Part shown: positions 510-64,000 of the stretch, one piece after another | How the letters are laid out: each line of letters starts with the position of its first letter | Numbering within the stretch: position 1 is the first letter of the stretch | From: a virus | Length of the DNA: 64,000 bases | IMG/VR virus record: IMGVR_UViG_3300028030_000011 | Coordinates: 12,294 to 76,293 of that record | Direction: 5' to 3' (one strand) | The notes under the pieces: model-generated | Databases searched by the model: none | Seen by the model: the letters and a program-made list of their open reading frames with translations, nothing else | What the model was told of the DNA's origin: nothing | Position numbers and translations under genes: made by a program

Positions 510-511
510 TA

Positions 512-520
512 TGTTATAAT
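512..520 (+). promoter_or_regulatory. extended -10 sigma70 promoter (TGTTATAAT) upstream of helicase leader
   Basis: TGnTATAAT followed by a structured 200-nt leader. Confidence 0.55.
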
Positions 521-569
521 TTTTATGTTAAAACATAAGATTATCCTCTTCTTAATTGAAGAGGGTATT

Positions 570-666
570 AACTTTTTGAGGTTTACCAGACCATTGCAAA
601 TCTAGGAATATCACTTGGTATTCCTCAAAGAGTTTTCTACAAAAGATGTAATAGTCTGGTAAACTT
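570..666 (+). ncRNA. structured leader RNA (hairpin plus downstream antisense element)
   Basis: Stem 570-588/616-634; 579-598 is complementary to 647-666. Confidence 0.55.
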
Positions 667-726
667 ACTTCTTTTTTCTCTTTAAAAAAATATAAAATTA
701 CTATTGTTACTTTAAAAAGGATAACT

Positions 727-2532
727 ATGAAGATACAACTATACGATTATCAACAAGAAGCTGTTGATGAAATAGAATCAGAGTTTATGCTTGGTTCAAA
801 TAAAGTTATATTATCAGCATGTACCTCTTATGGAAAGACATTTACGTCATTATTCTATGCCATAGAGAATACAATGGGTAGGGTATTTATCTCTCTATCA
901 ATATCAGCTTTAGTAGACCAATTTATAGAATCTATCAACAAACTTGAATTTGAAGATTATGGAGTTGTTAAAAGAGGATATGAGCATCTATACAATCCAC
1001 AAGCTAGAATCCAAATAATTATGGATAATAGTTTTGTTAATAAACTTACTGATTTTGGTAGAGATTGTGAATTGCTCATTATAGATGAAATACATGTTAG
1101 AATAACTGGTGATAGGATGAAACAAATAATTGGTTGGTTACAACCTGAATATATTTTAGGAATGTCAGGTACACCTTATGATTCACGAGGATTCATTATA
1201 ACAGGTTTTACTACCATAGAGACAATAACACTTAAAGAGTTAACAGATAGGGGTAAATTGACTCCTATACGTTATTTTACTACTAAATTTGCAACAGAAG
1301 AGGATTTATCTTGTTACACAATTAGTGGAGATGATTATAGTCAAGAATCTTTGTCAAATTTATATAGCTCTGATGAGTATATGCGTAAAATGGTAGATGC
1401 TTATAAAAACATTGGTGATAAAATTGATTTAAATCCATATAACTGTAAAAGTATATGGCTATGCAGCACTATAGAAGCTTGTAATAAGTTGGAGGCAAAA
1501 CTACAAGATAATGGATTTGAAATATATGCTTATCATGGTAAGTTATCAGATACTGAAAGTAAGCAGTTGATGCACTCATTTAGGACAGGAGAACCACTTC
1601 CACCACAAGCAAGAAATTTATTAAATTATAATACAAGAGAAGAAAATAGATATGTTAATGGGTTAATATCAGTTCAAAAGTTAGCTGTAGGATTTGATGT
1701 TCCTGACATAGATATTGGTGTTGCTTGTAGCACTACAAAAGTTCGTTCAAAAATTATGCAGTACTATGGAAGATTGTGTAGGAAATCACCAAAAAAAGAA
1801 ACAGCATACTTCTTAGACTTTGGTCAAAATATTATGCTCCATGGCTTTGCTGATGAAGATTATAAACCACTTCCACCTGATGCTGATGTTGAAGAGATAA
1901 AAGAAAACAAAAGAAAACATTCTCTTGAATATCTTGATATTGTGTTTGATGGTTCAATTGGTTTACTTGAAATAAATAGAGAATCATACGAACTTAAATT
2001 AAAAGAAATGAAACAAGAAGGCAAATCATTGTCTGAGTTAACAATAGAAGAGCTTAAGAATAAATTTGCAATAGAAGAAGATTATCTTGAATTGATAATT
2101 ATGATGTTTGCATTTGTAAATAAAGTATATGGGTATGACGGAAAAAATGATACTCGTAATTATAAATCAAAATCATGGGATAAGGAGAACAATAGAGAAA
2201 AAGAAAAGGTAAATTATAACTTTTATAATGAATCAAAAGTTGATTGGGTAAGTGAAACATGGATAAAACTTTTCGATAAATATGATGATAAATATCTTCA
2301 TAGAAAATGGACTAAAGCTCTTAAAACAAGAATTAGAAGTGTTGTAAATTCTCAAAAGAGTATCTATAGTATTAGATTCTTTGCAGAAAAGTTAGAAGAG
2401 TGGTATCTTGAAGAGCAAGATAAAGAAATTGAAGTAGTTTATGAACCATCTGAATTAGAGAAACAATTAGAACAACAATCACAAGATGTATTTGAATATG
2501 AAATAGAAATAGATGAATCTATTCCATTCTGA
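727..2532 (+). CDS. SF2 DEAD/DEAH-box helicase
   Basis: Walker A-like ACTSYGKT, DEIH, SGT, GFDVPDID, QYYGRLCR. Confidence 0.9.
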   Translation: MKIQLYDYQQEAVDEIESEFMLGSNKVILSACTSYGKTFTSLFYAIENTMGRVFISLSISALVDQFIESINKLEFEDYGVVKRGYEHLYNPQARIQIIMDNSFVNKLTDFGRDCELLIIDEIHVRITGDRMKQIIGWLQPEYILGMSGTPYDSRGFIITGFTTIETITLKELTDRGKLTPIRYFTTKFATEEDLSCYTISGDDYSQESLSNLYSSDEYMRKMVDAYKNIGDKIDLNPYNCKSIWLCSTIEACNKLEAKLQDNGFEIYAYHGKLSDTESKQLMHSFRTGEPLPPQARNLLNYNTREENRYVNGLISVQKLAVGFDVPDIDIGVACSTTKVRSKIMQYYGRLCRKSPKKETAYFLDFGQNIMLHGFADEDYKPLPPDADVEEIKENKRKHSLEYLDIVFDGSIGLLEINRESYELKLKEMKQEGKSLSELTIEELKNKFAIEEDYLELIIMMFAFVNKVYGYDGKNDTRNYKSKSWDKENNREKEKVNYNFYNESKVDWVSETWIKLFDKYDDKYLHRKWTKALKTRIRSVVNSQKSIYSIRFFAEKLEEWYLEEQDKEIEVVYEPSELEKQLEQQSQDVFEYEIEIDESIPF

Positions 2533-13776: not shown

Positions 13777-13845
13777 ATGATATTATATTAGGAATAGTAG
13801 CATTGAAAATATCAATGTTAATGACTATGATTTTAAAGGTTATTT

Positions 13846-13870
13846 TGAACCACATATAAGAGATGGTTCA
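13846..13870. terminator. TGAACCA-N11-TGGTTCA palindrome between convergent transcripts (partial cassette repeat A)
   Basis: Perfect 7-bp arms flanked by T-rich sequence. Confidence 0.55.
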
Positions 13871-13876
13871 TTTTTA

Positions 13877-14488
13877 TTATGCTAGTAGATTTTTAGCTTC
13901 TTCTATTTTAGTTTCATAGTAAGAAGCTATTTGTTTAAATTCTTCTTGCAATCTTTCAACCTCTGACTTCTGAGGCTTATTTGCTTTACACCATCTATCA
14001 TAAGCATTTCTTACTAAAGAAGAATCATAGGTTGGAGTATTATAAATCATTTTACCAACAGTACCATTTAATTCATCTGGTATTTCTCTTCTAACAGTTA
14101 TTTTGGCTTTTGTTTGAGCTAATCCACTCCATACTAAAGCATCCCATACCTCAGTCTCCATTACATCATCTTCAATATCTTCAAATGTAGTACCTATACA
14201 ACCTCTAACACTCATATAGCCATTTTCATATACTTTTGGTTTTTTAGCTATTTTAACAGCTTGTTCTATAGTTGGTCTTAATTCTCCTTTTTTATCTGTA
14301 TATTTAACGGGCTGAAATTTCAGCTCGTTAAATCTTTCTTCATCAAGAGTTGAAATCATTTTATTGAAATCAGAAACTAAATTTTTATTCTCTTTTCCAT
14401 ATTGGTCAGCTACATCTTTTAATGTCATTTTAAATCCTGCATTTTGCAAGAAACTCTCTGTTGGTGTTAATTCGATTAAATCTTTCAT
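13877..14488 (-). CDS. Rha N-terminus + KilAC-like C-terminal domain protein (cassette A1)
   Basis: MTLKDVADQYGKENKNLV...YTDKKGELRP followed by KPKVYENGYMSVRG. Confidence 0.75.
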   Translation of the reverse strand: MKDLIELTPTESFLQNAGFKMTLKDVADQYGKENKNLVSDFNKMISTLDEERFNELKFQPVKYTDKKGELRPTIEQAVKIAKKPKVYENGYMSVRGCIGTTFEDIEDDVMETEVWDALVWSGLAQTKAKITVRREIPDELNGTVGKMIYNTPTYDSSLVRNAYDRWCKANKPQKSEVERLQEEFKQIASYYETKIEEAKNLLA

Positions 14489-14552
14489 AGATTTATCCTT
14501 TAATTAAAAGTACGGACAATGATAAATTTTGTGAGAGTGAAGTTATGAAGAA

Positions 14553-14739
14553 TCTTGTCCAGAGAGTTCTTCAAACTATATATACACTCATTTCAGGTTC
14601 AAAAGTAGTTTAGAGAGGTAAAGTTACCTCTCAAAGAACTCTCTGGACGAGAAATCAATGTATACAAAACAATAAGTTTACTCAATGGTATTCATCTCTG
14701 AATACCTAGAAAGTGGCTTGAACACCATTCAGTAAACTT
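14553..14739 (-). ncRNA. double-hairpin structured leader of cassette A1
   Basis: GTCCAGAGAGTTCTT/AAGAACTCTCTGGAC perfect arms; second 21-bp imperfect stem 14674-14739. Confidence 0.6.
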
Positions 14740-14747
14740 TATAACAG

Positions 14748-14790
14748 TATATCACATCTATTTTAAGAACCACCTATAAGAGATGGTTCA
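14748..14790 (-). repeat. cassette repeat A (palindrome plus extended -10 promoter)
   Basis: TATATCACATCTATTTTAAGAACCACCTATAAGAGATGGTTCA, identical to the copy at 15595-15637. Confidence 0.9.
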
Positions 14791-14840
14791 GTTCTACCTT
14801 TTCCTGACTGACTCGCCTGACTGTCGAGCCAATAATTTAA

Positions 14841-15443
14841 TTAGTTGTAATACTGCTTTAATAAATTTATTGCACTATCAAATTTTATATAAGGTGTTTG
14901 AAACTCACCTCTAGTCTTCAATAAGCCATTGCAATCATTTTTCATGTGCCAATATCTAGTTGGTCTTATTGAATCTTCTATTGCTCCAAGTTTAACAAAG
15001 AACTCTTGTATTTGAGATTCTGTATAATCAGTTCTTTGTGCTATACCTCTTATAGAAGAATATCCATCAGAATCTATCATGCATAATTTCTTTTCTGATT
15101 TCAATAGTTTAATCTCTTCTTCTTTTGATGCTGTTAACATTTCATAAATAATATTATCACACCAAATTGCAAATTCTGGAGAAATCCATCTAGCAAATAT
15201 AATCAATAAACTATTATGGATTAATGTCTTTCCAACTATAGTTGTATTGATTAAGGTTCTTTTAACAGCGTTACATTTTTGTAACGCACTTAAATATTCC
15301 TTAACTCCTTTTGATTTTCTCCAATGAGTAAAATTTTTACCATGAGATTTAGCTATACCACTAACATCAATCATAAATTCTTTTTCATTGATTACCTCTA
15401 TAGGCAATACAGCTTCATTAAAAACTTTTACAAGTTCTTTCAT
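14841..15443 (-). CDS. KilA-N + KilAC-like domain protein (cassette A2)
   Basis: IDVSGIAKSHGKNFTHW, TLIHNSLLIIFARWISPEFAIWCD; start moved to MKELVK. Confidence 0.8.
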   Translation of the reverse strand: MKELVKVFNEAVLPIEVINEKEFMIDVSGIAKSHGKNFTHWRKSKGVKEYLSALQKCNAVKRTLINTTIVGKTLIHNSLLIIFARWISPEFAIWCDNIIYEMLTASKEEEIKLLKSEKKLCMIDSDGYSSIRGIAQRTDYTESQIQEFFVKLGAIEDSIRPTRYWHMKNDCNGLLKTRGEFQTPYIKFDSAINLLKQYYN

Positions 15444-15485
15444 GATATTTTCTTTCCATAACAATAATTCTAAGTTTTGATTGAT

Positions 15486-15588
15486 GGTGTATGAAATCAA
15501 CAATCACAAATTAATAACTTAGAGGTATATGAAAATTGAGTAATTTCCATATACCAATTATTGGCTTCATACACCTCTAAGCTATTAA
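15486..15588 (-). ncRNA. structured leader RNA of cassette A2
   Basis: 23-bp stem 15511-15533/15566-15588; 15557-15575 complementary to 15486-15504. Confidence 0.6.
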
Positions 15589-15589
15589 C

Positions 15590-15637
15590 AAAATTATATC
15601 ACATCTATTTTAAGAACCACCTATAAGAGATGGTTCA
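15590..15637 (-). repeat. cassette repeat A (48 bp)
   Basis: Minus strand reads TGAACCA-N11-TGGTTC-TTAAAATAGATG-TGATATAAT-TTT. Confidence 0.9.
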
Positions 15638-15642
15638 TTTAG

Positions 15643-16374
15643 CTATGCTAACAGATTTTCATCAACATACTTTATTGCAGCGTTAGAGAATCTCTCTCTC
15701 AATTCATCGGCTTCTTCTGATGTTGGTTTGCCATCTTGAATATATTTATAAACTAAATCATTTATGAATTTTAAATCAAATGTAGGTAGTCCATAACTAG
15801 TTCTTGAAGCCATCACATATTTAGCAATCTCATTATCTGTATCTATATCTCTTGATATTGTAATTTTAGGCATAGTCTTAACATACCCATAATGAACTAG
15901 CATATCCCATGCTTCATGTTCTTTTACTACTTCTATACCTTGCTCTTTCAATTCTACTAAACAACCCTTCAAACTCATAAAACCATTGTCATATACTTTT
16001 GGCTTTTTAGCATCTCTTATTGCTTTTGCCTTTTCTTTAGAAAATTCAATCCTTAAAGCATCTTCTCTAATCTTTTGAATTTCATCTCTCATAGTAAAAA
16101 ATTGATTTACAAGTTCCTCTTTGAATTTTTCAGTAATTTCATTGTTTGGTAACAATGTTAAAAGTAAGGTACAAGATTTTTCATCAAACTTCATTTCAGA
16201 ATAATTTAAGTCTTCCGACAAATCGTATGGATAACTTAATCCATTCTTAATCAACATATTTATCTTTCGTTTAACTATTTTCTTAACAGCTTCATCTCCA
16301 AGTTTAGAAAATTTAATAATAGTAGATAATTCTACAACAGCATTAGTGTTTTCAATAGTAATAAGATTTTGCAT
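15643..16374 (-). CDS. Rha-like + KilAC-like domain protein (cassette A3)
   Basis: TLLLTLLPNNEITEKFKEELVNQF; KPKVYDNGFMSLKG; GAGGA RBS before MQNLIT. Confidence 0.75.
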   Translation of the reverse strand: MQNLITIENTNAVVELSTIIKFSKLGDEAVKKIVKRKINMLIKNGLSYPYDLSEDLNYSEMKFDEKSCTLLLTLLPNNEITEKFKEELVNQFFTMRDEIQKIREDALRIEFSKEKAKAIRDAKKPKVYDNGFMSLKGCLVELKEQGIEVVKEHEAWDMLVHYGYVKTMPKITISRDIDTDNEIAKYVMASRTSYGLPTFDLKFINDLVYKYIQDGKPTSEEADELRERFSNAAIKYVDENLLA

Positions 16375-16418
16375 CTTTATTCCTCTTAACAATGGTAATA
16401 AATTTAGAGTTTGGATTT

Positions 16419-16526
16419 GATGTACCAAATCAATCCATAAACCTATTTAATATAGTAAACTCAAAGATGAACCAATTACGAGTGTAATTAGAACATCAAG
16501 ATGATTTGGTACATCTTTCAATTTAC
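16419..16526 (-). ncRNA. structured leader RNA of cassette A3
   Basis: Stem 16455-16474/16507-16526; 16502-16515 is the perfect 14-nt complement of 16419-16432. Confidence 0.6.
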
Positions 16527-16531
16527 ATACT

Positions 16532-16579
16532 AAAATTATATCACATCTATTTTAAGAACCACCTATATAGGATGGTTCA
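16532..16579 (-). repeat. cassette repeat A (48 bp), directly after vRNAP stop
   Basis: Near-identical to 15590-15637; differences only in the palindrome spacer. Confidence 0.9.
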
Positions 16580-16580
16580 T

Positions 16581-19500
16581 TTAAAGCATATCATTTATAA
16601 TATGTACTGGTGCAGGAATAATTAAATCCTCTATATTTCCAAATGGATTTCTCATCTTCTCATCAGGAGTCATTAGTAACCAATAATTCTCAAATGGTGT
16701 AGCTATATCATATACCACTTTTTCAAATGCTTCTATAGCAAGTACAGTCTTAGGATTCTCTCTTAATAGCCTAGACATTACTTTTTGCATTCTAAGATAG
16801 TATTTAATGAATGGAAACCAAGCTACTTGGTCAGCCCATCTAACAGCTTTACCAAGAGGTATATCATACTGAACAAAATCATCTAATGCTTCATCATATA
16901 TCTGTTGATATGATTTATTTGTATTGTTCTCTTTCTCTAACTCTATTTGAGCATATCTAGCTGTAAAATCACTAGCTTGTGTAAAGTGATACATGAGTTT
17001 AAAATAGTTAGTGTCTTCTGCTAAATACAATTCTCTACCTATTTTTACTACCTTTTCAGGTAATATTTCTTCAACTTTATCTATAGCATCTCTGATAGGT
17101 TTTAGAGACTCAAAAGCTTTATTAATAGTTATGTCTTCTATTCTAGCTGACAATAATCCATCATCAATTAAACTTCTTATCTTATTCTGGTTCAATCTAC
17201 TTTGCAAATCTGTAATTAACTCTTCATCATAAAGTAACCCAGAATCTCTTTTAAGCTCTTCTTGCTTAAGTAAATCATCAGTTCTCATATAATCATTGAG
17301 ATACAAAAGACCTTCTTTTTGTTTTGCGTATATATCTCTTAAAGAATATCCTTTTGATTTAGTGAGGAATAAGTTAGAAACAAAGTTGCTTAACAACGTA
17401 AGAGGATATTTGATAATTACAGTAGCTTTCCATAATCCCATTAATTCTTTCCAAAAATCTTCTGCAAATTTTGCAACTTTCTTCATTGTTGGTATGTCAT
17501 TAAAAATACTAGATATAGAGCTATCACGAGAACCAAGAAATATATTTTTAGTATTACCATTAGCTGGTATATAGAATCTGCCTTTATATTTATCAACAAT
17601 ATAGTCTCTAGTATCTTGTGGCAACATATACCATATATCATCATATTCACTTACTTTATTCTCAAAGCCTTTACTAGCAAATGGAGCTGATATTTTTATC
17701 CACTCTTTATTGTCTGTTTTATCTACAAACTTATCAACTGTTTCATTATCTTCTAGTCCAAGTCTAACAATACTATCAATAACTCTAATATTTACTTCTT
17801 TTGCTTTTTGCTTTTCAAATCCTCTAGCTCTTTGGTTCGCATATATATCAGCAATATTGTATGAGTATTTTAGATATTTTTTCTTCTCTTCAAATGATAA
17901 TGGGTCATAATCATAGCGTGAACCATTTCTATTGAATACATACTCAGTATTATGAATTTTTACAAAATTAGGTCTAGCTCTACCATAAAGTTCAAAATAC
18001 AATTTATCTATATCTTGACTAACACTCTTTTCACCATATACTAATGCTCCTCTAGTATATGAATTCATTTCAGGAGTAAGAGAATATACATGAATATTAC
18101 CCGGACTAAATGGATTCTTAATTATCTTAATTCTTTCTCCACCTAATTCTCTGACTCTTTTTATTTCATCTTTGTTACTGTCTAATATATTTACTACAGA
18201 ATTAACTTTACTACTGTTTTGTATAGCAAGACCATCTTGAACTAAATCAGGGTTATCATGATAGAATTGCTCTAACATCTCTCTCTCATAGCTGTTTGTC
18301 ATAATCATTAAATCATGAAATGCATTCTTATCTTTTGTTACTTTAGATAAAAACTCTTTTTTGTAATTTTTTATTCCTAATAAAGATGCTAAAGCTGTCA
18401 TCTCATTCTTTTTGCTAAAATCAAATCTAGTAGCAATAACATGTATATTTCTAAATTTAGTATTCTCATCATGAGTGAGTCTATATTTAACTAGCTTCTT
18501 AATGTGTGGAATAGATTTTTTAGGAACTAATTTTTCTAATCTTCTTATCTCTTCATTTGGATTCTCAATAAGAGATAATATTTGGTCTATTGAATACCCT
18601 ACATCTAATAAATTACCAACTTTAGATGAATTAAGTAAGTTACCTAACAATGACTTCTCATATTCATTTAGACCCATATATTGAATCTTTTCATTAATAA
18701 ACTCATGTGTATTGGTTCGTAATTTTTCTCTTACAATATCAACTTCTTTAATTGAATTTCTAAGCTCTTGAACTTCAATGCTAGTATCTTTTGCTGTTTT
18801 AAATATATTATCACCCAATACTTGCAATTCATCAACTATATTATTTAGGAAACCTTCTTTATCTATTCTCGCTTTAGACATAGAATCAATACCTTTTGAG
18901 ATAATATCACCAATTGCATAACCAAACTCTTTTTTAGAGAATGGAATATTATTCATAGCCATAATAGCTAAAACTTTAGCAATTGTTTTTGTGTCTCCAA
19001 CTATAAATTTAGATATATTTCTTTTTAAAGAATCACTATCTTTTGACATATATTCAATTATATGAAAAACAGAAGATTTATTATCCTTGATTAAATCACT
19101 TCTTATTTTCAATGTTTTACTATGATAGAAGAATGCTAATTTGTTAACATTTGGTTTAATATTTTCATTATATTTATCACCAGCAAATCTAAGAGCTTTA
19201 TACACACCATTAAATACTTTATTCTCATTTTCAATAGTTATTCCTACACTCTGTTTTACAAGTGTTTGTAATTTACTTTGCATATCTAAATCTATTCTTC
19301 CATTAGTGAGAAGCATAGTTAATTTCTTTAATGAAGATGTAACAATATTTACAAGATTACTCAAAATAGAACCATTACCTTTATTCAATATTGTATTCAT
19401 GCCAGATAGATTGTTCATAAAATTCTTATTTGTTAATCCATATGCTGCAAACTCTGATACATCTCCTTTACCACCAAATACATGTTTAGCCATTCTTTTA

Positions 19501-22500
19501 GCTAATTGTTCATCTTCTACTGTATATACACCATCTTTAGGAAGGAATAATTTATATATATCTTTACCATGCTGCTGTTTTAACTCTTTCATCATATCTG
19601 TTATTTGATTAACAAATATATTTGCGTCTTTTAATGCACCATCAAAAATATTATGAACTAACTCATGCACATATACTTCTTGTGCTGACATGCTCATATT
19701 GTCACTACCTTGGTTAGCAATAGCTATTTTAGCAACATTCGAACCACTTGCACTACCGTAACTCATACTATCTGTTTTACCTACTGCAACTACAATTGTT
19801 TCCATTACAGGAGCTATAATACTACTTAAAACATTTGATAGTTTATTGCTGTATTCAGAGCTAATTACATCATTTGACCATTGTTTTATTTTCTCAAATG
19901 ATTTAATTATATTCTCTTTATTTACTTTAAATGTAAAATATGGTTTAAACTCTTCATTTGTATCAAGAGATTGTTTTGTGTTGTTAATCTCTTGTTTTGC
20001 TTTTTTAAGTTTCGTCAAATGACTATTCAATTTGGTCTTATCCAATTGAATAATCTCTATGCCACTATCCTTCATTATTTCATTAACAGCTCTAACTAAA
20101 GCATAGCCTGTTAGGCTTTCAAGTTTTCTAACAGGTATTTTATCAAATGCTTCTAATACATCTTCAAGCTCTATTTTTGATAATTCAGGATTAGAACCAT
20201 TCTTCATGAGATGCTCATAATTTAAATCATTAGCTGTCGTTTTAGTCTTAGGGGTGTAATTATTAATCTCATTATTAAGACCTGTCAATGATTCACTTTG
20301 ACCTAATTTTTCATTTGTCTCTTCTTTATATTTGTCATAAATTTTTTTATGCTCAGTAGTATCTATAGGTTTAAAATCATTTGATTCATTTTTGACATAT
20401 CTTTCGTCTACTCCAACAGAATGCTCAATTGTAGTTACAATGTCCTTTAATATGCGTCTGTTTAACTGATTCAATTCAATATGAAAATCAATAGATATAG
20501 GGTCAAAATATATGCTACCATTATCACCTACTTTTACAGTAGATAAAGTTCCTATCATCATTGAATCTATTTGCTTTTTCGATAATTTATCTTTATCTAA
20601 TGATTCGTAGAATCTAAATAATCTATCTGTAGCATATTCAGTATATGGTATTATTTTATTATCTACTTTCATATCATGAACAGATTTAGGCAACATTGCA
20701 TTTATATTTTCTTTAGTCCACTCATAATTGTTAAATGCTATTTTTGCATTTTTAAGAACTTCAACAAATGGTGAATATCCACTATCAATAAGTTTATTAA
20801 CACTTTTATTATATTGTTTAGCTCCACCTTCTGCTGATAGAACAGCATCAAAAATATACAATCCTATATTTTCTTGTGAAGTATTTTTGATAGTGTCTGC
20901 AAGTACACCAGAGTCAGTCATAAGAGTTGATAGAGCTGGTGTTCTTACTCCAATATCAATCCATGATGTAACTCCAATAGTTTGAGTAGACATCAAATGT
21001 CTATCCTTGCCTTTTGTAGCCACTTTGACTTGATAGTTTTTACCCTTTATAATATTGTTTATTTGGTCATTAAAACCTCTCTTCATTAACTCACCTTGTC
21101 TACCCTCAAAAGTGGTTAAAACAGGTGCTATCCCATCTTTAATGAGCTTATTTGTTATCTCATTGATTACTTGCTTAGAGATAAATCCATGTTCTTTATG
21201 ATATGCGTCTAATCGTCTAAAGAACTCATCTAAAAAATATTTATTTTGAAGATTAGATACTCTTTGAGTAATCTCTGTACCTTGCTTAAAAGGAGCTAGA
21301 ACTTTATTTATAGAATCAGTAATCACTTTACCTAAAGTGTTTCTATAATTAGTTCTTAATGTAGCTAACTGTTTAGCAGTAAATTCAAAATCATTTAAAT
21401 TATAATTATATTTATTTGTATTTGTAGGATTCTCTAAACTATGTAACCTCTCATTGAGGTGGTTCATCAATTCTTGAATATTTTCATCATTAAATTGAGA
21501 CTCTTGTACTTTACCATTTATTGTAAGTTTAACCTCTTTCCCATTTGAATCTTTGTTAAAATTAACAATTGATTGAACCATCTGAACGACTAATTGTATC
21601 TCTTGCTTTGTTGATTTACCATTAGCAATATCTTCTATTTTAGTATAAAAATCATCTATCATTTCATCAAATTTACTGTCCTGAATAGACTTGTCACCAG
21701 CTGTATATCCTTTAGCAATTATAGGTGTTTTAAAGAAGTTTCTAGCTTGTCTAAGAGCTTCTGACCCTTTAGATAATGTATCAGATACAACCCATGATTC
21801 TAGCATAGGCTTAAAAAAGTTATTGAATAGATTATATCTAGCTACTTTAGCATAGTATGCATTCTTTTCGTTAACTGTCTTTAATTCTTTCTTTGGTGGC
21901 TCAGGCTTACGATTATGCTCATAATCATTATCTTTATCCTGCAATCTATTGTGCATTTCAATACCTGATTCTTCATAGTTATCAAGACCTACATAGTCAG
22001 TATTTTTTGTTGTGTCAGTTTGGTTCGTATAGATACCACCTTTATGAAGCATTTCAACAGATTTGCTATCTAATGGATTGAAATAGAATATTGATTGTAA
22101 AGTCGAACCACTCTGTTTTGCATCAGTCTCTTTTTCAAGTGTAGTTTCAAATATATCACCTTTTTTATTTACAAACTTTTTAAGTTCTACCAATCCTTGA
22201 AGAGTATATGCTCCTTCTCCATATTTTTGAACCAGTTCAATAGGAGGATATATAGACTTATCATTGAGATATGACATTAGTTCACTATCTAATAACAACT
22301 TACCAAACTCTTCTAGTATTTCATCAGGCTTCATATTCTCAGATTTCATTCCAAATGAATCAAGAATAGCTGATTTCCATATTAGCATTCTACCTTCATC
22401 TTTAATATCAACAGTTCTTTTAGAGTTGATATTATGAGTCAAAAATCTATGTAATTTATTTGACTGAGGGTTAATCAGTTCAGCTACCAAATGCATTCTC

Positions 22501-25500
22501 TCTTCACTAGCTCTCTTATATTTGTAATACATAGGTGTATTACCTATTGTTTCTATTACCTCCATAAGAGTATCTATTGAATCATCTATTTGTAGATTCT
22601 TACCTTTAATAGAAGCATGTTTAGATGTATGTGAATATATTCCAGCAGTATTAGCAAATTTAAAATCATATCCCATAATAGTTCTAAGATAGTCTCTAAA
22701 CTCTTTTTCTCCTAACTCTTGATATAAATCAATTATCTCTTGCTTTATCTGTCTGGGTGCTTGTTGTTGCTTATTTATAGCCTCATCTTTTACTATTTCG
22801 TGTGGAGTGGTTCTCTCTTCTGGTAAATGCATTCTGAACACTTTTTTAAGTACAGCCTTACCTTTACCTCTAATTGGAGATTTATCATTTGCACGAAGGA
22901 AATTTACTCTTTTATTGCTATCTGTACTGTATGGTATAGCTCTATACGCATTAAACTCTTTCATTGTCATTGAGAACTGTTCTACATTAGCTAAATTAGA
23001 TGTTCTAAGCAAATGAGTAGCAAGTAGTGCTATAGCACTACCAAATCTCTCTTTTGCTAATGGGTTATTAGATTGGAGAGAGATATATTCATTCATAAGA
23101 TTTGACATTGAAGAGATAATATTGGATTGTAATTTACCATATTTAAATCTACTTTTCATGGCTACAGTCACATCATGTTCAGAGTTTAAACCAAGAAGTG
23201 TAGCTATATCTTCATCAGTATTCTCATTGAACATCTCTCCACCTTGATTCATCATCCCATCAATGGCTACAAATGTAACAAGATTAACAAGAGTATTTTC
23301 ATCTAATCCATTTAACATTTCATTGTATTTATCAGAATCTTCTTTATTGAAATCCATGGCAAATATCTCACCTCTATCAGATATGTTTTGAACCAGTTCT
23401 CTAGCTTGTTTTATTAGGGGTCTAACAATATTGTTAAAATATTGAATCTCCTTATCTTTTGTAGAATAATCATTACCTTGTGTACCTTCAATACTTTGAG
23501 ATATTAAATCCCATGTCTCAAAGGCTTTCATTAAACCAAATTTCACCCCTTTAGGTAATTTCATTTTTTGTAATTTATTATAGAAGCCTTTATCTATTGT
23601 ATTTATCTTGGCAATAAATCCATCTGTTAATTTACCTGTAGCTTTTAGCTTCTTCTTGTACTCTGACATCAAAACATTTATATTTTGTTTTCTTGATACT
23701 TCATTGGTTCTATATTGTTTAGATTTTACTTGTAATTCAATTAAAGCACTAAGCTCTTTATTTAAAGAATCAAGTTCTTTTTGAATCTGTTCTTTATTTT
23801 TGAAAAGTTTTGTAATCAGAGAGTTAATCTCTTTTACAAATTGTTTTATTTTTTCAACAATTACTTCTCTTAGTGATGGAAGAATTTCAGATTTCTTATC
23901 TTTATTTAATTTAGATTTTTTACCTTTTTTAAACTTTTTAGTATTCTCTATCCTTTTATTAATGGTTTCTAAATCTTTTTCTAATTTAGCTATTTTTTTC
24001 TTTTTATCATTTATCTCTTTTTGTACCCCTTTATATCTCTTTTTCCATTTACCATCTTTAGTTTGGTATATTCCATCAAGTTTAGCTTGTAGCTCATCAA
24101 TTTTTCTTTCAAGTCTACTAGCTCTTTTATCTTCTTTTACAGGTGTAAGCTCTTTCTTTTTAGTGTTAAAAGATTTCTTTAACTCATTAGCATATTGATT
24201 AGCTAATTTTCTATTTTGTAAATCTTGTAAACCTTTAGCAAATGCATCTTTAGCTTCATCTATAGTAGATGCTTTCTCTATATTAGAGATATGTGAACCA
24301 ACTACTTTTTTATCTTCTTTTATTTGCTTATCTTCTTTAGTATCTTGTTGAGATGGTTCATTAGTTATAGATGTTTCGCTTGGTATTCCACCCCTACTTT
24401 TTAAAAAGTTATTATAGCTCTCATTGACAGCTTTAGCTTCTCTCTCTATTCTATCGACTAATTTAACACTACCATTGTGATTAGCATCTACATACTCTTC
24501 TGTACCAAGACTATTTACTCCAAGAGAAACTCTTTTGCCTGTCGCTCTAGATTCTACAAGTGCTTGTTTGAATCTTATAGCCTTATCATTCATTTGACCA
24601 ACAAATCTTTTGTATCCAGACTCTTCTATTTGTTTTGGTGTAGCATCAGATAGTCTTGACTCCCATTGGGAAATACCTACATTATTATTATCACCAGTAA
24701 ATATCTCTTTAGAGACTTGATATTTATCTTTTACTTGATTATACTCTTTAGATTTATCAATTTGTTCCTGAACACTTTTATCTTCTGTTCTGATAGTATC
24801 AACATTAGGCATATCCATAAAAGCACTAATATTGGCACTTTCATTATCACTAATAGAGTTTTTAGTTATTGGATTATTATCTACTACACTTTTAAGAGAT
24901 GCTTTAGCTGTTTGTATAGAATCAAGTACTTGTTTGATATTTAGGATATTGTCTATATCTTGTAGTGTATAGCCTTTATCTTTTAAAGATTTTGGAACTT
25001 TAGGATTCTCTTTATCGTATAAAGCATCATACTCTTCATCAGTTATAACATTTTGAATTTCATTTGAAATGTTATCAATCTCTTTAACAGCATCTTTACC
25101 AATCTTATCATGAAACTCTTTTTCAAGATTATCTACTTCATTATACGAGTTAGATGCATCTTCAACAGTTTTAACTTCTTTGCCCATTACTTGATGATAA
25201 TTAGGCATCTTGCTTTGTACTGTATGATATGCTCTCTTCGTATCTATCTTCTTTGCAGTATCTTGTTTAGGTGGTTCATTTACTACTGTAGTCTCTTGTT
25301 GTGTAGAAGGCTCTGTTGTTGGTGTTTGTGGTTCAGGATACTCATTGGTTGCATTAGGTGTTACAGGCTCTGTATTAGATTGCTTTGTCTTAAAATTATC
25401 TCTAGCTCTTGTAAGTGTCTGTAGCAACTCTTCTTTTGATAATTTACTTAAAGACATTTTAGTAATTGTACCAGTATTTCTAATAATAGGACTATTGTCT

Positions 25501-36018: not shown

Positions 36019-36783
36019 CTATTTATCAGATAGATACTCTTCTAGTTGTCTTCTCATCTTAGTTTTAAAGTCTTGATTTACACATGGACTTCCTACTTTA
36101 TTATATTGATTTATTATGGCTCTAACAGCATCTGGAATATAAGTATAATCTCTAGTAGCTTTTACACCATCTTTTTTAAATGTTTTAGACTTGTAGACTA
36201 AACCCATATAGTCATCATTCATTGTTGGTCTAGTTGTTATTTTAATGTCTACAGTCATAACCTCTTTCCACACCAAAGCATCTTTTATATAATCATAAGA
36301 CTCTTGAAATCCATAATGTTGAATAAGACCTGTAATAGATGTTGTGCCATCATCATGCAATCTAACTTTATTTGCATCAGCTTCTATTTGAGCTATTTGC
36401 TGTTGAGCTTCTTCTAAGATTAGCATTTCATTTTTTTTAGATTCAAGTCGTATTTCATTTTTAATCCATCTATCACAAGCTACAGCAAAATCAGAAGAAA
36501 TCCATCTTGCAAAATGGATTATTAAATCTGGATGAATATATGTTCCACCATACTTTCCTTGAATAGCTTGTTTTAACTCCGTAGATTTTACGGAGTTAAA
36601 ATTACATACAGACTTCATATATTCTTGTGTATCTTGACTTTTCCAATAATTAGATAAATCTTTACCAAAAGTTTTAGAAACCTCTGTAGCATTTAACCAT
36701 GCTCCATTTTCTAATGCAAATTTAATATTTACATCAACTAAGTCTAATGTAGTGTTTGAGAAATTTTTTAATTGAATTTCCAT
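36019..36783 (-). CDS. KilA-N + KilAC-like domain protein (cassette B1)
   Basis: WLNATEVSKTFGK, GGTYIHPDLIIHFARWIS; HDDGTTSITG. Confidence 0.85.
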   Translation of the reverse strand: MEIQLKNFSNTTLDLVDVNIKFALENGAWLNATEVSKTFGKDLSNYWKSQDTQEYMKSVCNFNSVKSTELKQAIQGKYGGTYIHPDLIIHFARWISSDFAVACDRWIKNEIRLESKKNEMLILEEAQQQIAQIEADANKVRLHDDGTTSITGLIQHYGFQESYDYIKDALVWKEVMTVDIKITTRPTMNDDYMGLVYKSKTFKKDGVKATRDYTYIPDAVRAIINQYNKVGSPCVNQDFKTKMRRQLEEYLSDK

Positions 36784-36824
36784 TTAACAGTATTACTTTC
36801 ATTAATTTTAAGTGAAGGATTTGG

Positions 36825-36912
36825 AGAGGTTATCAAGCTTTCTAATCCTATTATACACTTAGAGGTTAGCATCTCTACTAACCGACTAGAAGGCTTGATA
36901 ACCTCTAAATGT
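36825..36912 (-). ncRNA. structured leader RNA of cassette B1
   Basis: Stem 36855-36868/36899-36912; 36887-36906 complementary (19/20) to 36825-36844. Confidence 0.6.
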
Positions 36913-36915
36913 CTT

Positions 36916-36978
36916 TAAAATTATATCATATAAATCTTTAATGAGTAGAGTTAGTGTTTAGCTAACTCTTGTTTGATT
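36916..36978 (-). repeat. cassette repeat B (63 bp; hairpin plus TGATATAAT promoter)
   Basis: One mismatch versus 37784-37846. Confidence 0.9.
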
Positions 36979-37642
36979 GTCTTACATAATCAATTACAGC
37001 TTGTTTAACGACTTGTGGATAGTATGTAGGTGCTTGTGTGCCTCTATCAGTACCTATATAGCTTGGAGTACCTTCTGGTAATCTTCTATACTTTGTAACT
37101 TTAGTAATATCTTCATTCCACCCCTTAAATGTTAAAGCTTCCCAAACAAAGTCTTCTGATACATCTAATCCAGTATGTTGAATAACTCCTCTAACACTCA
37201 TCGTACCATCATCATAAATTTTACATTTCTTAGCATTAGCTACTGCTAACTGTTTTTCTTTCTCTGCTTGTTCTAATAGAGCTTCTGTTTTAATCTGATT
37301 TACTTTAATCATTTCTGATTTAATAAATCTATCACACTCAATAGCAAATTTAGGAGAACACCATCTTGCAAAATGAACCACGAGTTCTGGGTGTAAATAT
37401 GTTCCTTGTTGTTTTCCTTTACCTGTAACAACAATTTTAAGGTCACTGATTTTCAGTGAGCATAATTCTGCTAATTCAATCATATATTCTTCAGTATCTT
37501 TTGATGTGAAATAGTTATCAATACGCTTACCAAACTCTTTAGCTGTTGTTGTAGCATTAATCCATAAACCATTCTGTAATGCGAACATTACTTCTTTACT
37601 TGATATAGCTTCATTACTAAAGCTGTGTAATTCTAAATCCAT
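36962..37642 (-). CDS. KilA-N + KilAC-like domain protein (cassette B2)
   Basis: WINATTTAKEFGK, GTYLHPELVVHFARWCSP; KIYDDGTMSVRG. Confidence 0.85.
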   Translation of the reverse strand: MDLELHSFSNEAISSKEVMFALQNGLWINATTTAKEFGKRIDNYFTSKDTEEYMIELAELCSLKISDLKIVVTGKGKQQGTYLHPELVVHFARWCSPKFAIECDRFIKSEMIKVNQIKTEALLEQAEKEKQLAVANAKKCKIYDDGTMSVRGVIQHTGLDVSEDFVWEALTFKGWNEDITKVTKYRRLPEGTPSYIGTDRGTQAPTYYPQVVKQAVIDYVRQSNKS

Positions 37643-37686
37643 AATAGATTCCTAAACATAGACAAATTTTAAAGGTTGATGATTGT

Positions 37687-37781
37687 GAGTCCAATACGAC
37701 CATCTAAATAAATACCTTAGAGGAATACCCTTACCAAGTAGTAAAGAAATTCCAAGTCGGATTGGACTCCTCTAAAGTATT
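37687..37781 (-). ncRNA. structured leader RNA of cassette B2
   Basis: Stem 37711-37724/37768-37781; 37756-37769 complementary (13/14) to 37687-37700. Confidence 0.6.
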
Positions 37782-37783
37782 AA

Positions 37784-37846
37784 TAAAATTATATCATATA
37801 AATCTTTAACGAGTAGAGTTAGTGTTTAGCTAACTCTTGTTTGATT
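37784..37846 (-). repeat. cassette repeat B (63 bp)
   Basis: One mismatch versus 36916-36978. Confidence 0.9.
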
Positions 37847-37849
37847 ATG

Positions 37850-38623
37850 CTAGTTCTCCCCTAGCTCATCCATTGGTCTATATTTGGCTCCCCAACCCTT
37901 TACAGACTTTCTAACACCTCTAAGAACTTTAGCCATATTGCTAGTAGTAGAACCAACGAACTCAGAAGCTTCTTTATTTGATGTGAATACTTTTTCTTCT
38001 CCTGTATCATTGTTTGTTAGAATTATATCTCTACCAGAAATCTTAACTATTTTAGGAACAGCTTTCTCCTCCATCTTTCTATATGAGTACATATAGCCAC
38101 CATGAACTTGTCTACCCTCTTCTGTATTATTGTTTGTATCATTTGTTAAACACTCTGATACATGAGCAGTATTGAGCTTTAATAGTCTACAAGCTTCTAT
38201 AGGGTTTCTATAGCTTCCTAAGTACTTTCCATCTAAAGCATCATATAAGAACACTCTCTTTGGTTTAGAAGCTATCTGTGAATTTTCTCCTAATGATATA
38301 ACTCTACAGTTATTTGGGGTATAATTCTTTAGTGGGTCTATTCTATCACATACAAGAGTTTGTTGGTTCGCACTACCAATTCTTGGAATATATCCACCAA
38401 CTATCATCCATCTAGCGTATGCAAAATAATCATATCTCCACTCATCACATACCTCAATACCTTTAGCTCCATACTTATGGTAATTACGGTCGTTCTCATT
38501 ATGGCATCTTCTATTCATAGTATTCCATATTCTTCTAAGTTTATGGTTCACTAACGACTTAGGGTCTGTCATGAGGTCATGAAGTAATTCTTCTGTTGTA
38601 AACTTTTCTACAAAATTAGCCAT
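37850..38623 (-). CDS. free-standing HNH-type homing endonuclease with NUMOD1-like repeats
   Basis: WNTMNRRC...YGAKGIEVCDEW...DRID...NYTPNNCR; two C-terminal HTH-like modules. Confidence 0.75.
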   Translation of the reverse strand: MANFVEKFTTEELLHDLMTDPKSLVNHKLRRIWNTMNRRCHNENDRNYHKYGAKGIEVCDEWRYDYFAYARWMIVGGYIPRIGSANQQTLVCDRIDPLKNYTPNNCRVISLGENSQIASKPKRVFLYDALDGKYLGSYRNPIEACRLLKLNTAHVSECLTNDTNNNTEEGRQVHGGYMYSYRKMEEKAVPKIVKISGRDIILTNNDTGEEKVFTSNKEASEFVGSTTSNMAKVLRGVRKSVKGWGAKYRPMDELGEN

Positions 38624-56687: not shown

Positions 56688-56831
56688 CCTAACAAAGAAT
56701 AAGAAAAAAAGTTTGCCTTATATTTTATACCCACAATTTTCTATTCGTGAGCTAAAGCTCACTCATATAAAATCCAGCTTCGTATGTGGGTATAAAATAT
56801 AAGTTTGCCTTTTTTCTTATTCTTTGTTAGG
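56688..56831. repeat. 144-bp nested inverted repeat
   Basis: About 22-bp and 19-bp perfect arms plus inner GTGAGCT/AGCTCAC. Confidence 0.85.
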
Positions 56832-58233: not shown

Positions 58234-58329
58234 GAGCCTACAAACACCTCAAATCTTATGTTACTATAATCTTTAGATGAACCACATAAATATGGACTCA
58301 TCTGAGGTTTGTAGGCTCATCTAAAGATT
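58234..58329 (-). ncRNA. structured leader RNA upstream of RepL-like gene
   Basis: Stem 58268-58282/58315-58329; 58303-58318 complementary to 58234-58251 with a 2-nt bulge. Confidence 0.55.
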
Positions 58330-58349
58330 TGGTAGAAATTCCTTAGGGA

Positions 58350-58378
58350 ATTTTACCATTTTGAAGTTTAAAAGTCAA
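58350..58378 (-). promoter_or_regulatory. sigma70 promoter TTGACT-17-TAAAAT
   Basis: Near-consensus hexamers, 17-bp spacer, TG extension. Confidence 0.65.
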
Positions 58379-58652
58379 GTGCTTAAGAAAACATTAAGAA
58401 TCCGATTTATCAAATTGTATTCTGTATATGGAATAGCTAAGCCTCTTTAAGTTTCATTTAAGATTTCAATTTTAGTTAACCTATTTTACATATGAAATAG
58501 CTAAGCCTAAGATGTGGGTAATCAATCTCGATAACCCCCCCATTAGCTTTAGTGGTGACCCTTTAGCTTATTCTATGGTGGTTCAATAGTTGTCACCTAA
58601 TCTTAGCTATAGCTCTATGGCTAGACTATAGCTTTATATCTTGAAAGGATAT

Positions 58653-63729: not shown

Positions 63730-63985
63730 ATTATTTCCATATTGTTTCCACTTTTGTTGGAAACTATATCTTATTTCTTACTATTTCTTACTATTTCTTA
63801 TCTATTTCCGACCTATTTCCGAGAAATAGGTAATAGTGTCTCCCAAAAAATTAGGAAATATTTATATTGTGGGAAGAACTAGATATGAAATAGATAGGAA
63901 ATAGGTCGGAAATAGGCTATTTCCGATTACCTTTAATCTATTTCCGATATTTCCTATATTTTTTTACATATCTATTTCCTATATA
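63730..63985. repeat. TATTTC-rich repeat region with 19-bp perfect inverted repeat
   Basis: CTATTTCCGACCTATTTCC (63802-63820) versus GGAAATAGGTCGGAAATAG (63897-63915); tandem CTATTTCTTA. Confidence 0.75.
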
Positions 63986-64000
63986 TCTAGTTCTTATACA

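Follow-up and report, generated by a model that had tools for sequence, protein, structure and literature searches.

The stretch analyzed here (the window) comprises 64,000 nucleotides (nt), bases 12294-76293 of the 76,293-bp IMG/VR record IMGVR_UViG_3300028030_000011, from a phage genome with a G+C content of 30%. At several places in the window, a promoter is followed by a leader in which a segment near the 5' end is complementary to a segment closer to the start codon; the genes downstream comprise three KilA-N genes (two of them behind canonical copies), two weak Rha-like genes, and a gene for an SF2 helicase. A reading made from the sequence alone (here, the sequence-only reading) had described at least six such leaders as C4/CI-like antisense regulators or RNA switches. 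All six of its complementary pairs are present at the coordinates given below, and we add a seventh, rearranged copy at 14486-14740(-). Aligned and read on the transcribed strand, these leaders constitute one conserved structured RNA family of ~145 nt, with several copies per phage.

By its sequence the phage is N4-like (Schitoviridae-type), as had been proposed: a 3626-amino-acid open reading frame (ORF) at 16581-27461(-), the giant virion RNA polymerase by which such phages are recognized, matches phrog_2206 (virion RNA polymerase) with an E value of 5e-142, and a major head protein gene is present. The phage is apparently lytic. A hydrothermal-vent metagenome is the sole run containing most of the stretch, and a distant-mode blastn search of window positions 14800-17800 against a phage collection gave no match. 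One related contig was binned with an Arcobacteraceae genome, which points to a Campylobacterota host, and the hosts of the leader-bearing phages are probably Campylobacterota.

The elements of the leader follow one another in the order extended -10 promoter, S1a, S2a, P3, S1b, linker, S2b, G-poor tail, ribosome-binding site, and ATG, where S1a and S1b pair as helix S1, and S2a (the guide) and S2b (its target) pair as helix S2. The promoter, of the form T(A/G)TGATATAAT, lies just upstream of each pair, and the predicted 5' end of the transcript, at which S1 begins, falls ~7 nt past the -10 box. S1a is 13 to 16 nt long (consensus ATTAATAC-TTTAGAGG) and S1b carries the motif CCTCTAAGGTATTAAT; canonical copies have a stem of 13 to 16 bp, and that of the copy at 15.5 kb reaches 21 bp. 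S2a begins immediately after S1a, its proximal part semi-conserved (G-N-GTCC) and its distal part hypervariable; the scaffold is fixed, with hypervariability confined to S2, chiefly to its distal half. P3 is a 6- to 8-bp hairpin inside the S1 loop, with the loop sequence UCACUUGR. After a linker of 7 to 12 nt, S2b follows as a perfect or near-perfect complement of S2a, giving a helix of 14 to 22 bp that has a single mismatch or bulge after 9 to 14 bp in 12 of 14 leaders. The tail is G-poor and conserved (AATCA..AACCTTAAAATT..TTGTCTGAAAG) and ends in a GAAAG-type ribosome-binding site, which S2b does not overlap, and the ATG. Of the 15 leaders measured, 13 have 142 to 166 nt between the -10 box and the ATG; the divergent W_L3 has 136 nt, and W_L6, which carries an extra hairpin, 206 nt. 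The 3' end of S2b lies 39 to 54 nt upstream of the ATG in canonical copies and 66 nt upstream in W_L6, the helicase-gene copy (automated assignment), rather than on the ribosome-binding site as a C4-like target would.

The earlier description of stem, loop, spacer, and variable segment needs correcting. The stem exists as S1 and runs from the predicted transcript 5' end; the loop is present and encloses the conserved hairpin P3; the supposed short spacer is a conserved motif, AAGGTATTAAT, within the return strand of lower S1; and the variable segment, assigned to the inner 5' arm of the stem, follows S1a and lies mostly outside S1.

The copies in the window are as follows (energies are those of the S2 duplex; R1 and R2 are the covariance models described below).

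15441..15603 (-): W_L1, preceding a KilA-N gene (ATG 15443; Pfam KilA-N E 1.5e-14). Promoter TGTGATATAAT 15603-15593; S1a 15586-15572; S2a 15575-15557; P3 15550-15529; S1b 15528-15512; S2b 15504-15486; G-poor tail and ribosome-binding site 15485-15444. Pair 15557-15575/15486-15504, 16/19 Watson-Crick and more with G-U; -23.6 kcal/mol; 0/300 shuffles better; R1 102 bits.

16372..16545 (-): W_L2, preceding a weak Rha-like gene (ATG 16374; Pfam Phage_pRha E 6e-4, under the curated cut-off). Promoter 16545-16535; S1a core AAAGATG 16518-16512; S2a 16515-16502; P3 16491-16472 (loop ACTC); S1b core CATCTTT 16469-16463; S2b 16432-16419. Pair 16502-16515/16419-16432, 14/14; -23.5 kcal/mol; R1 86.8 bits.

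36781..36930 (-): W_L3, divergent, preceding a KilA-N gene (ATG 36783; Pfam KilA-N E 2e-20). Promoter 36930-36920; S1a 36908-36899; S2a 36906-36887, overlapping S1a; inner hairpin 36883-36864; S1b 36868-36859; S2b 36844-36825. Pair 36887-36906/36825-36844, 19/20; -32.8 kcal/mol; missed by R1 and R2.

37640..37798 (-): W_L4, canonical, preceding a KilA-N gene (ATG 37642; Pfam KilA-N E 3e-19). Promoter 37798-37788; S1a 37784-37769; S2a 37769-37756; P3 37746-37729; S1b 37723-37708; linker 37707-37701; S2b 37700-37687; tail and ribosome-binding site 37686-37643. Pair 37756-37769/37687-37700, 13/14; -21.7 kcal/mol; R1 118.8 bits.

58234..58385 (-): W_L5, leader-like, with no gene directly behind (next ORF start 57998). 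-35/-10 promoter TTGACT ... TGGTAAAAT, -10 at ~58355-58350; S1a 58329-58317; S2a 58318-58303; inner hairpin 58295-58282; S1b 58281-58269; S2b 58251-58234. Pair 58303-58318/58234-58251, 16 nt plus a 2-nt bulge; -29.6 kcal/mol; 0/300 shuffles better.

510..729 (+): W_L6, divergent, preceding the SF2 helicase gene (ATG 727; phrog_16 E 5e-46). Promoter 510-520; extra hairpin 545-565; S1a TTTGAGG 575-581; S2a 579-598; P3 605-624 (loop TCACTTGG); S1b CCTCAAA 623-629; S2b 647-666. Pair 579-598/647-666, 17/20; -25.5 kcal/mol; weak R2 match, 19.6 bits.

14486..14752 (-): W_L0, rearranged double leader preceding a Rha-like gene (ATG 14488). Promoter TGTGATATACT ~14752-14742; hairpin A1 ~14734-14672, a 15-bp stem with a guide-like segment in the loop; long helix A2, arms ~14653-14637 and 14573-14557, enclosing a GAGAGG/CCTCTC hairpin, with a 15-nt perfect inverted repeat 14557/14637.

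Covariation of the leader helices

Perfect inverted repeats of at least 12 nt with a spacer of 30 to 110 nt form nine clusters in the window, whereas first-order Markov shuffles average 1.2 and never exceed 4, a 7- to 8-fold enrichment. The cognate S2 duplex was better than those of 300 out of 300 shuffles of its own target in 14 of 16 leaders. A combined stem-plus-target score was 22 to 27 for real leaders and at most 21 for ~110 unrelated viral contigs with the promoter-plus-TTAGAGG pattern, mostly chance matches from a loose first pattern scan of viral contigs. The complementarity is thus not reproduced by shuffled or unrelated controls, the comparison chosen beforehand as able to overturn the idea. 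Cognate S2 duplexes reach -20 to -33 kcal/mol, whereas non-cognate combinations average -9.5 kcal/mol (standard deviation, 4). Gene-linked copies found via the scaffold each have an intact S2 of their own, except for the weak L130:3868 (-13.9 kcal/mol); the gene-less L130:3706 is the other exception.

Covariation was tested for the three helices with a 13-sequence alignment and 500 shuffles. Paired cells across S1, S2, and P3 amounted to 79% (63% in shuffles) and the covariation score to 0.49 (0.21 in shuffles), values that 0 of the 500 shuffles reached in either case; with the structures slid by 1 to 3 columns, the score was 0.12 to 0.16. Changes on both sides of a pair occur in 11 of 16 pairs of S1, in 7 of the first ten pairs of S2, and in 6 of 6 pairs of P3. 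The alignment was fitted to S1 and P3, whose covariation counts lean towards the model; as S2 was absent from the covariance model, its covariation support is independent. Compensatory differences in S1 and distal S2 separate L226 from L232, W_L4 from L006:29, and L217 from L228. All three helices therefore covary, and a semi-conserved frame around a variable core that changes together with its own target, as the sequence-only reading had it, is found both in this genome and in related phages. Its remark that many mismatches are compatible with G-U pairing on the transcribed strand also stands: helix positions contain 43 G-U and 9 A-C combinations, an excess that indicates an RNA of the transcribed strand, neither a DNA-level signal nor an RNA of the opposite strand.

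A candidate fourth helix, P4, would be formed by linker and tail around S2b (-2.5 to -8.7 kcal/mol; p<0.05 in 7 of 14 leaders). Compensatory cases are clear in L128 and L217, and we propose P4, weak overall, only tentatively. About half of the copies would also allow the P3 loop to pair with the linker (AGUGA), an interaction confounded with P4. Several other readings of conserved segments were discarded: the AGAGG of S1a is not the start of a leader peptide, as the following ATG is present in some copies only; an upstream ORF that begins within the linker or S2b is contradicted by two leaders without a start codon there and by five whose ORFs stop 21 to 78 nt before the ATG; and pairing of the conserved tail with S1a was rejected because the tail is unchanged where S1 differs (L217, L226). 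As a side observation, the linker of W_L3 (36850-36877(-)) contains GTGTATAAT, a possible internal -10 box seen in this copy only; a transcript from it would begin at S2b, with the guide absent.

Related phages and the exchange of leaders

Protein-guided and pattern-guided scans located the leader also in IMGVR_UViG_3300028030_000019, _000052, 3300019863_000024, 3300019762_000018, and 3300020036_007007 and in four metagenome contigs. Covariance model R1, built from six copies with structure limited to S1 and P3, scored its training copies at 86 to 119 bits and recovered leader copies in five further contigs, new copies scoring 39 to 61 bits; model R2, built from 13 copies, added no strong member. 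Both models miss the divergent W_L3 and W_L5, and W_L6 is barely detected. R1 found no match among 78 KilA-N loci of unrelated prophages, and the leader as a general feature of KilA-N genes is ruled out by this result (0/78). The search of phage genomes suggested along with the sequence-only reading thus yielded further copies in related metagenomic phages, and the family, as judged from these sequences, is real but narrow, occurring so far in a handful of metagenomic phages.

With the relatives included, the downstream genes encode KilA-N proteins, KilA-N fused to T5orf172, T5orf172 alone, Rha-like proteins, an O/DnaD-like initiator, the SF2 helicase, and unknown proteins, most being of the KilA-N or Rha type, in line with the antirepressor/kil-type context proposed earlier. 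The idea that each gene has its own specificity was not supported: near-identical leaders with the same address (L232, L229, and L226) stand before three different genes, and the gene behind a W_L4-type leader is of the KilA-N type in one phage but Rha-like in a relative. By sequence comparison, the leader is a portable promoter-leader module, and in related vent contigs the genes are kept at 80 to 90% identity and the leaders are not kept. Across window positions 13800-17000, the Rha/KilA-N coding parts are matched at 80 to 95% identity by contigs from three further runs that drop out over the leaders, and one contig fuses pieces of different cassettes; the coverage loss and the fused contig indicate frequent module exchange. 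An orphan leader domain in IMGVR_UViG_3300019863_000024 (L130:3706-3838) has its own promoter and no gene behind it, and its guide forms a duplex of -23.4 kcal/mol with the neighboring KilA-N leader's target (L130 ~2920-2940), as opposed to about -11 kcal/mol with its own remnant.

The surroundings of the cassettes show further repeated features. An HNH / I-HmuI-like homing endonuclease gene (37850-38623(-)) lies directly upstream of the two KilA-N cassettes with W_L3 and W_L4; this neighbor, together with T5orf172 / GIY-YIG-like domains in several of the leader-linked genes of relatives, fits mobile cassettes. A recurring module of hairpin plus promoter flanks each cassette. In the region 13846-16579 it consists of a GAACCATC...GGTGGTTC hairpin with TTAAAATAGATGTGATATA(A/C)T behind it, in three copies at ~14790, 15640, and 16585. 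Another hairpin, AGAGTTAGCTAAACACTAACTCT, occurs in two copies (36940-36975 and 37808-37843) before the 36.9- and 37.8-kb promoters, and its terminator score is confined to the + strand. Further long-range perfect inverted repeats outside the leader family lie at 56693-56831 (17- and 19-nt arms) and 63802-63996 (13- and 19-nt arms).

A variant layout, in which a 15- to 20-bp hairpin carries the guide towards the 3' side of its loop, was seen at L131:2850-2945, L127:720-830, L006:970-1160, and 14672-14734(-) of the window. The guide pairs with a 9- to 11-nt segment a few nt downstream, which makes a more classical hairpin-loop pseudoknot. The window copy lacks the downstream partner; its hairpin, A1 of W_L0, recurs in the relative (L006 ~970-1160) with the downstream complement intact.

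Folding order and mode of action

The strand order S1a-S2a-S1b-S2b makes S1 and S2 interleave, both with covariation support (S1 11/16, S2 7/10), as in an H-type pseudoknot; such crossing implies either a pseudoknot or alternative states. The two helices are of similar strength (the energies of states, obtained by segment blocking, are crude and were used qualitatively only), and in W_L1 and W_L3 they share, and compete for, 5 to 8 nucleotides. When growing transcripts of 12 leaders were folded with nested pairs only, S1 was complete in the minimum-energy fold once S1b had been made in 10 leaders, and S2 supplanted S1 once S2b had been made in 9 to 10; the near-identical L232 and L229 finished in opposite states. 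The mutually exclusive RNA switch proposed in the sequence-only reading is compatible with the crossing of S1 and S2 and with this folding order, exclusivity being built into a nested-only model. On geometric grounds we infer that the complete helices would not coexist, because a linker of 7 to 12 nt is too short for two stacked helices of ~28 bp and because S2, at more than one turn, could form within the closed S1 loop only if the remainder of the mRNA were threaded through that loop.

We think it somewhat probable, on balance, that the leader is a modular promoter-plus-leader cassette encoding a conserved, cis-acting structured 5' untranslated region that refolds sequentially. S1 would form first, during transcription, and would then be displaced by S2, with its 14 to 22 bp and usually one defect after 9 to 14 bp. 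Such refolding would free the 5' end and build a long duplex and would thereby alter what becomes of the mRNA. The most likely route is that a double-strand-specific RNase cuts the duplex and that the 5' stem no longer gives protection, so that transcripts of potentially harmful DNA-binding proteins would be expressed only briefly. With private S2 addresses, the five to seven paralogous leaders present together in a cell would not cross-pair. The output, as far as we can infer, would be mRNA processing or stability, or translation. Action in cis is favored by the tight spacing between -10 box and ATG given above and by three further observations. When the guides of the window were compared with the sense strand of the entire 76-kb genome, each matched its own S2b best, the runner-up being at background, and no second extended target of any guide stands above background in that genome; the C4/CI-like action in trans proposed earlier finds no such target. 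A consensus scan, which terminators of AT-rich hosts may escape, detected no canonical terminator within the leaders or after S1; S1b itself is U-rich. Across the family, neither a start codon nor an upstream ORF is conserved in the target.

Several points weigh against sequential refolding in cis. W_L1 and L006:3289 retain S1 as the predicted minimum-energy fold, and a nested-only model makes S1 and S2 exclusive by construction; a strained side-by-side pseudoknot may exist. Neither state clearly occludes the ribosome-binding site, and the output named above is a guess; the start site, the processing, and both conformers are predictions from sequence. S2 is more variable than S1 and the scaffold, a pattern that fits selection for orthogonality and is more natural for trans-acting RNAs. 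The orphan guide, moreover, pairs better with its neighbor's target than with its own; as a single case in a mosaic region, it is a lead only.

The first of the alternatives, which we regard as unlikely, is a static pseudoknotted operator in which S1 (perhaps frayed at its base) and S2 coexist and, with the P3 loop and the tail, form a protein platform that sets translation. The T4 gene 32 operator, a pseudoknot with an unstructured leader, is a parallel, as is the ColIb-P9 repZ activator pseudoknot. The covariation of both crossing helices suits this arrangement, as do the conservation of the P3 loop UCACUUGR and the tail, neither with a convincing pairing partner, and the constant S2b-to-ATG distance in canonical copies. 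Some of the leaders precede initiator-like genes, and control of initiator translation by a pseudoknot is established in I-complex plasmids (references in PMC10724649). However, by geometric reasoning the linker cannot span stacked helices of 13 to 16 and 14 to 22 bp; in addition, S2, at more than one helical turn, is longer than is usual in H-type pseudoknots, S1 and S2 compete for the same nucleotides in W_L1 and W_L3, and no candidate binding protein was identified.

Slightly less probable again is a C4/CI/IsrK-like riboregulator acting in trans, in which the S1 domain (guide plus P3) would be freed by processing or premature termination and its S2a would pair with S2b on full-length mRNAs, silencing or activating the downstream gene, the diversified addresses giving orthogonality. 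The guide is displayed single-stranded in a stem-closed loop, the target perhaps in the loop of a weak hairpin (P4), and hypervariable, mutually orthogonal addresses are set in a conserved scaffold. The genes that follow belong to the ant/kil type, as they do with P1/P7 c4, P22 sar, and Gifsy-1 IsrK (PMC12197685, PMC4825925), and there are gene-less leader domains, at 58234-58385 of the window and at L130:3706-3838, the latter with the guide that prefers its neighbor's target. On the other side, Rfam C4 and c4-a1b1 are unmatched, and the sole extended target lies 60 to 90 nt downstream on the same RNA, so that cis pairing should out-compete a copy in trans. S2b lies off the ribosome-binding site, the target conserves neither a start codon nor an upstream ORF, the consensus scan shows no canonical terminator after S1, and one address serves different genes in different phages. 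The orphan is explicable as a recombination remnant because related contigs keep genes and swap leaders.

A more specific version, a set of mutually orthogonal leader-embedded antisense regulators whose released S1 domains act on their own or a neighbor's cassette, appears more doubtful still; if true, it would be a natural library of programmable riboregulators on one scaffold. The presumed hosts are not known to have Hfq. Finally, the absence of any RNA function, with the pattern due to chance complementarity in AT-rich DNA, to DNA-level signals (cruciforms, origins, or recombination sites), or to decaying ends of duplicated cassettes, might be suspected from the mosaic, recombining cassettes, the location of several copies near replication genes, and the 30% G+C genome but is very improbable given the failure of shuffles and unrelated controls to reproduce the pattern, the compensatory changes in three helices, the preponderance of G-U over A-C, unexpected for DNA or the opposite strand, and the fixed position relative to promoter and ATG.

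If sequential refolding in cis holds, the leaders represent an undescribed structured RNA family in which comparison among copies supports two crossing helices with unusual clarity and a specificity segment changes freely on a fixed scaffold. They would be a compact natural example of a sequentially refolding or pseudoknotted leader for accessory DNA-binding genes (KilA-N, Rha, T5orf172, and initiators) in an apparently lytic N4-like phage; the hosts are probably Campylobacterota, in which RNA-based regulation is poorly known. A portable cassette would help to explain how accessory genes are shuffled between phages with control retained, and the orthogonal address pairs could be of practical interest as parts for riboregulator design. 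As the family is narrow and its function predicted only, we consider its importance moderate.

Comparison with known systems

A search of the 64-kb window against Rfam returned no family at the gathering score, C4 (RF01695) and c4-a1b1 included, and at E values up to 10 the four leader loci searched gave only sub-threshold matches to miRNA-precursor-like hairpins. Membership of C4 or c4-a1b1, which the sequence-only reading had named as Rfam families to search, is thus not supported, and the leader is not a c4 member, though somewhat c4-like on paper. The c4 RNA is cut from its leader as a stable ~77-nt RNA that acts in trans. In P1/P7, c4 is leader encoded and segments of its loops pair with downstream sites on the same mRNA, upstream of antirepressor/kil-type genes (PMC12197685), and differences between guide and target sequences give the private specificities of heteroimmunity (Citron and Schuster 1990, as cited in PMC2864571). 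The leaders described here share with c4 the leader-encoded guide, the downstream target on the same RNA, the private specificities, and the ant/kil-type genes. They differ in having one contiguous guide of 14 to 22 nt, whereas c4 has two short boxes (a' and b'), and one target, whereas c4 has the a1b1 and a2b2 sets, one covering the ribosome-binding site of the first ORF. Unlike P1/P7, the phage hosting the leaders is N4-like and apparently lytic.

As with P4 CI (seqB with seqA/seqC) and Gifsy-1 IsrK, the leader RNA pairs within its own transcription unit, where downstream genes are controlled. The targets of P4 CI lie both upstream and downstream and its action is termination based, whereas here each guide has one extended complement in 76 kb. 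IsrK controls an antirepressor-like gene via alternative leader structures and needs a terminator that creates a short isoform as well as an upstream ORF (PMC4825925); in our leaders, by contrast, no canonical terminator was found by the consensus scan, which AT-rich terminators may escape, and no upstream ORF is conserved.

In the activator pseudoknots of the I-complex (ColIb-P9 repZ, IncB and IncL/M repA), as described in the references given in PMC10724649, the loop of a leader hairpin base-pairs with a stretch further downstream on the mRNA that carries it. Common to both systems are the loop-to-downstream pairing and an address region, which there is the incompatibility determinant, and the gene controlled there encodes a DNA-binding replication initiator. 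The I-complex pairings comprise a few bp beside the ribosome-binding site, whereas S2 has 14 to 22 bp and is distant from it. The I-complex pseudoknots further depend on translation of a leader peptide, and an antisense RNA transcribed on its own acts against them.

The RNase III signals of T7 are related structured elements 5' of several genes, each with a long helix carrying one defect, and the metastable hok mRNA refolds in sequence, which decides what becomes of the message. The helix S2 differs from both in being long range and in competing with a 5'-terminal stem, and it has no sequence similarity to either. What our leaders share with the T7 signals is that they form a family of structured elements within one phage and that the S2 helix is interrupted by one defect; with hok mRNA they would share sequential refolding, which is here our proposal.

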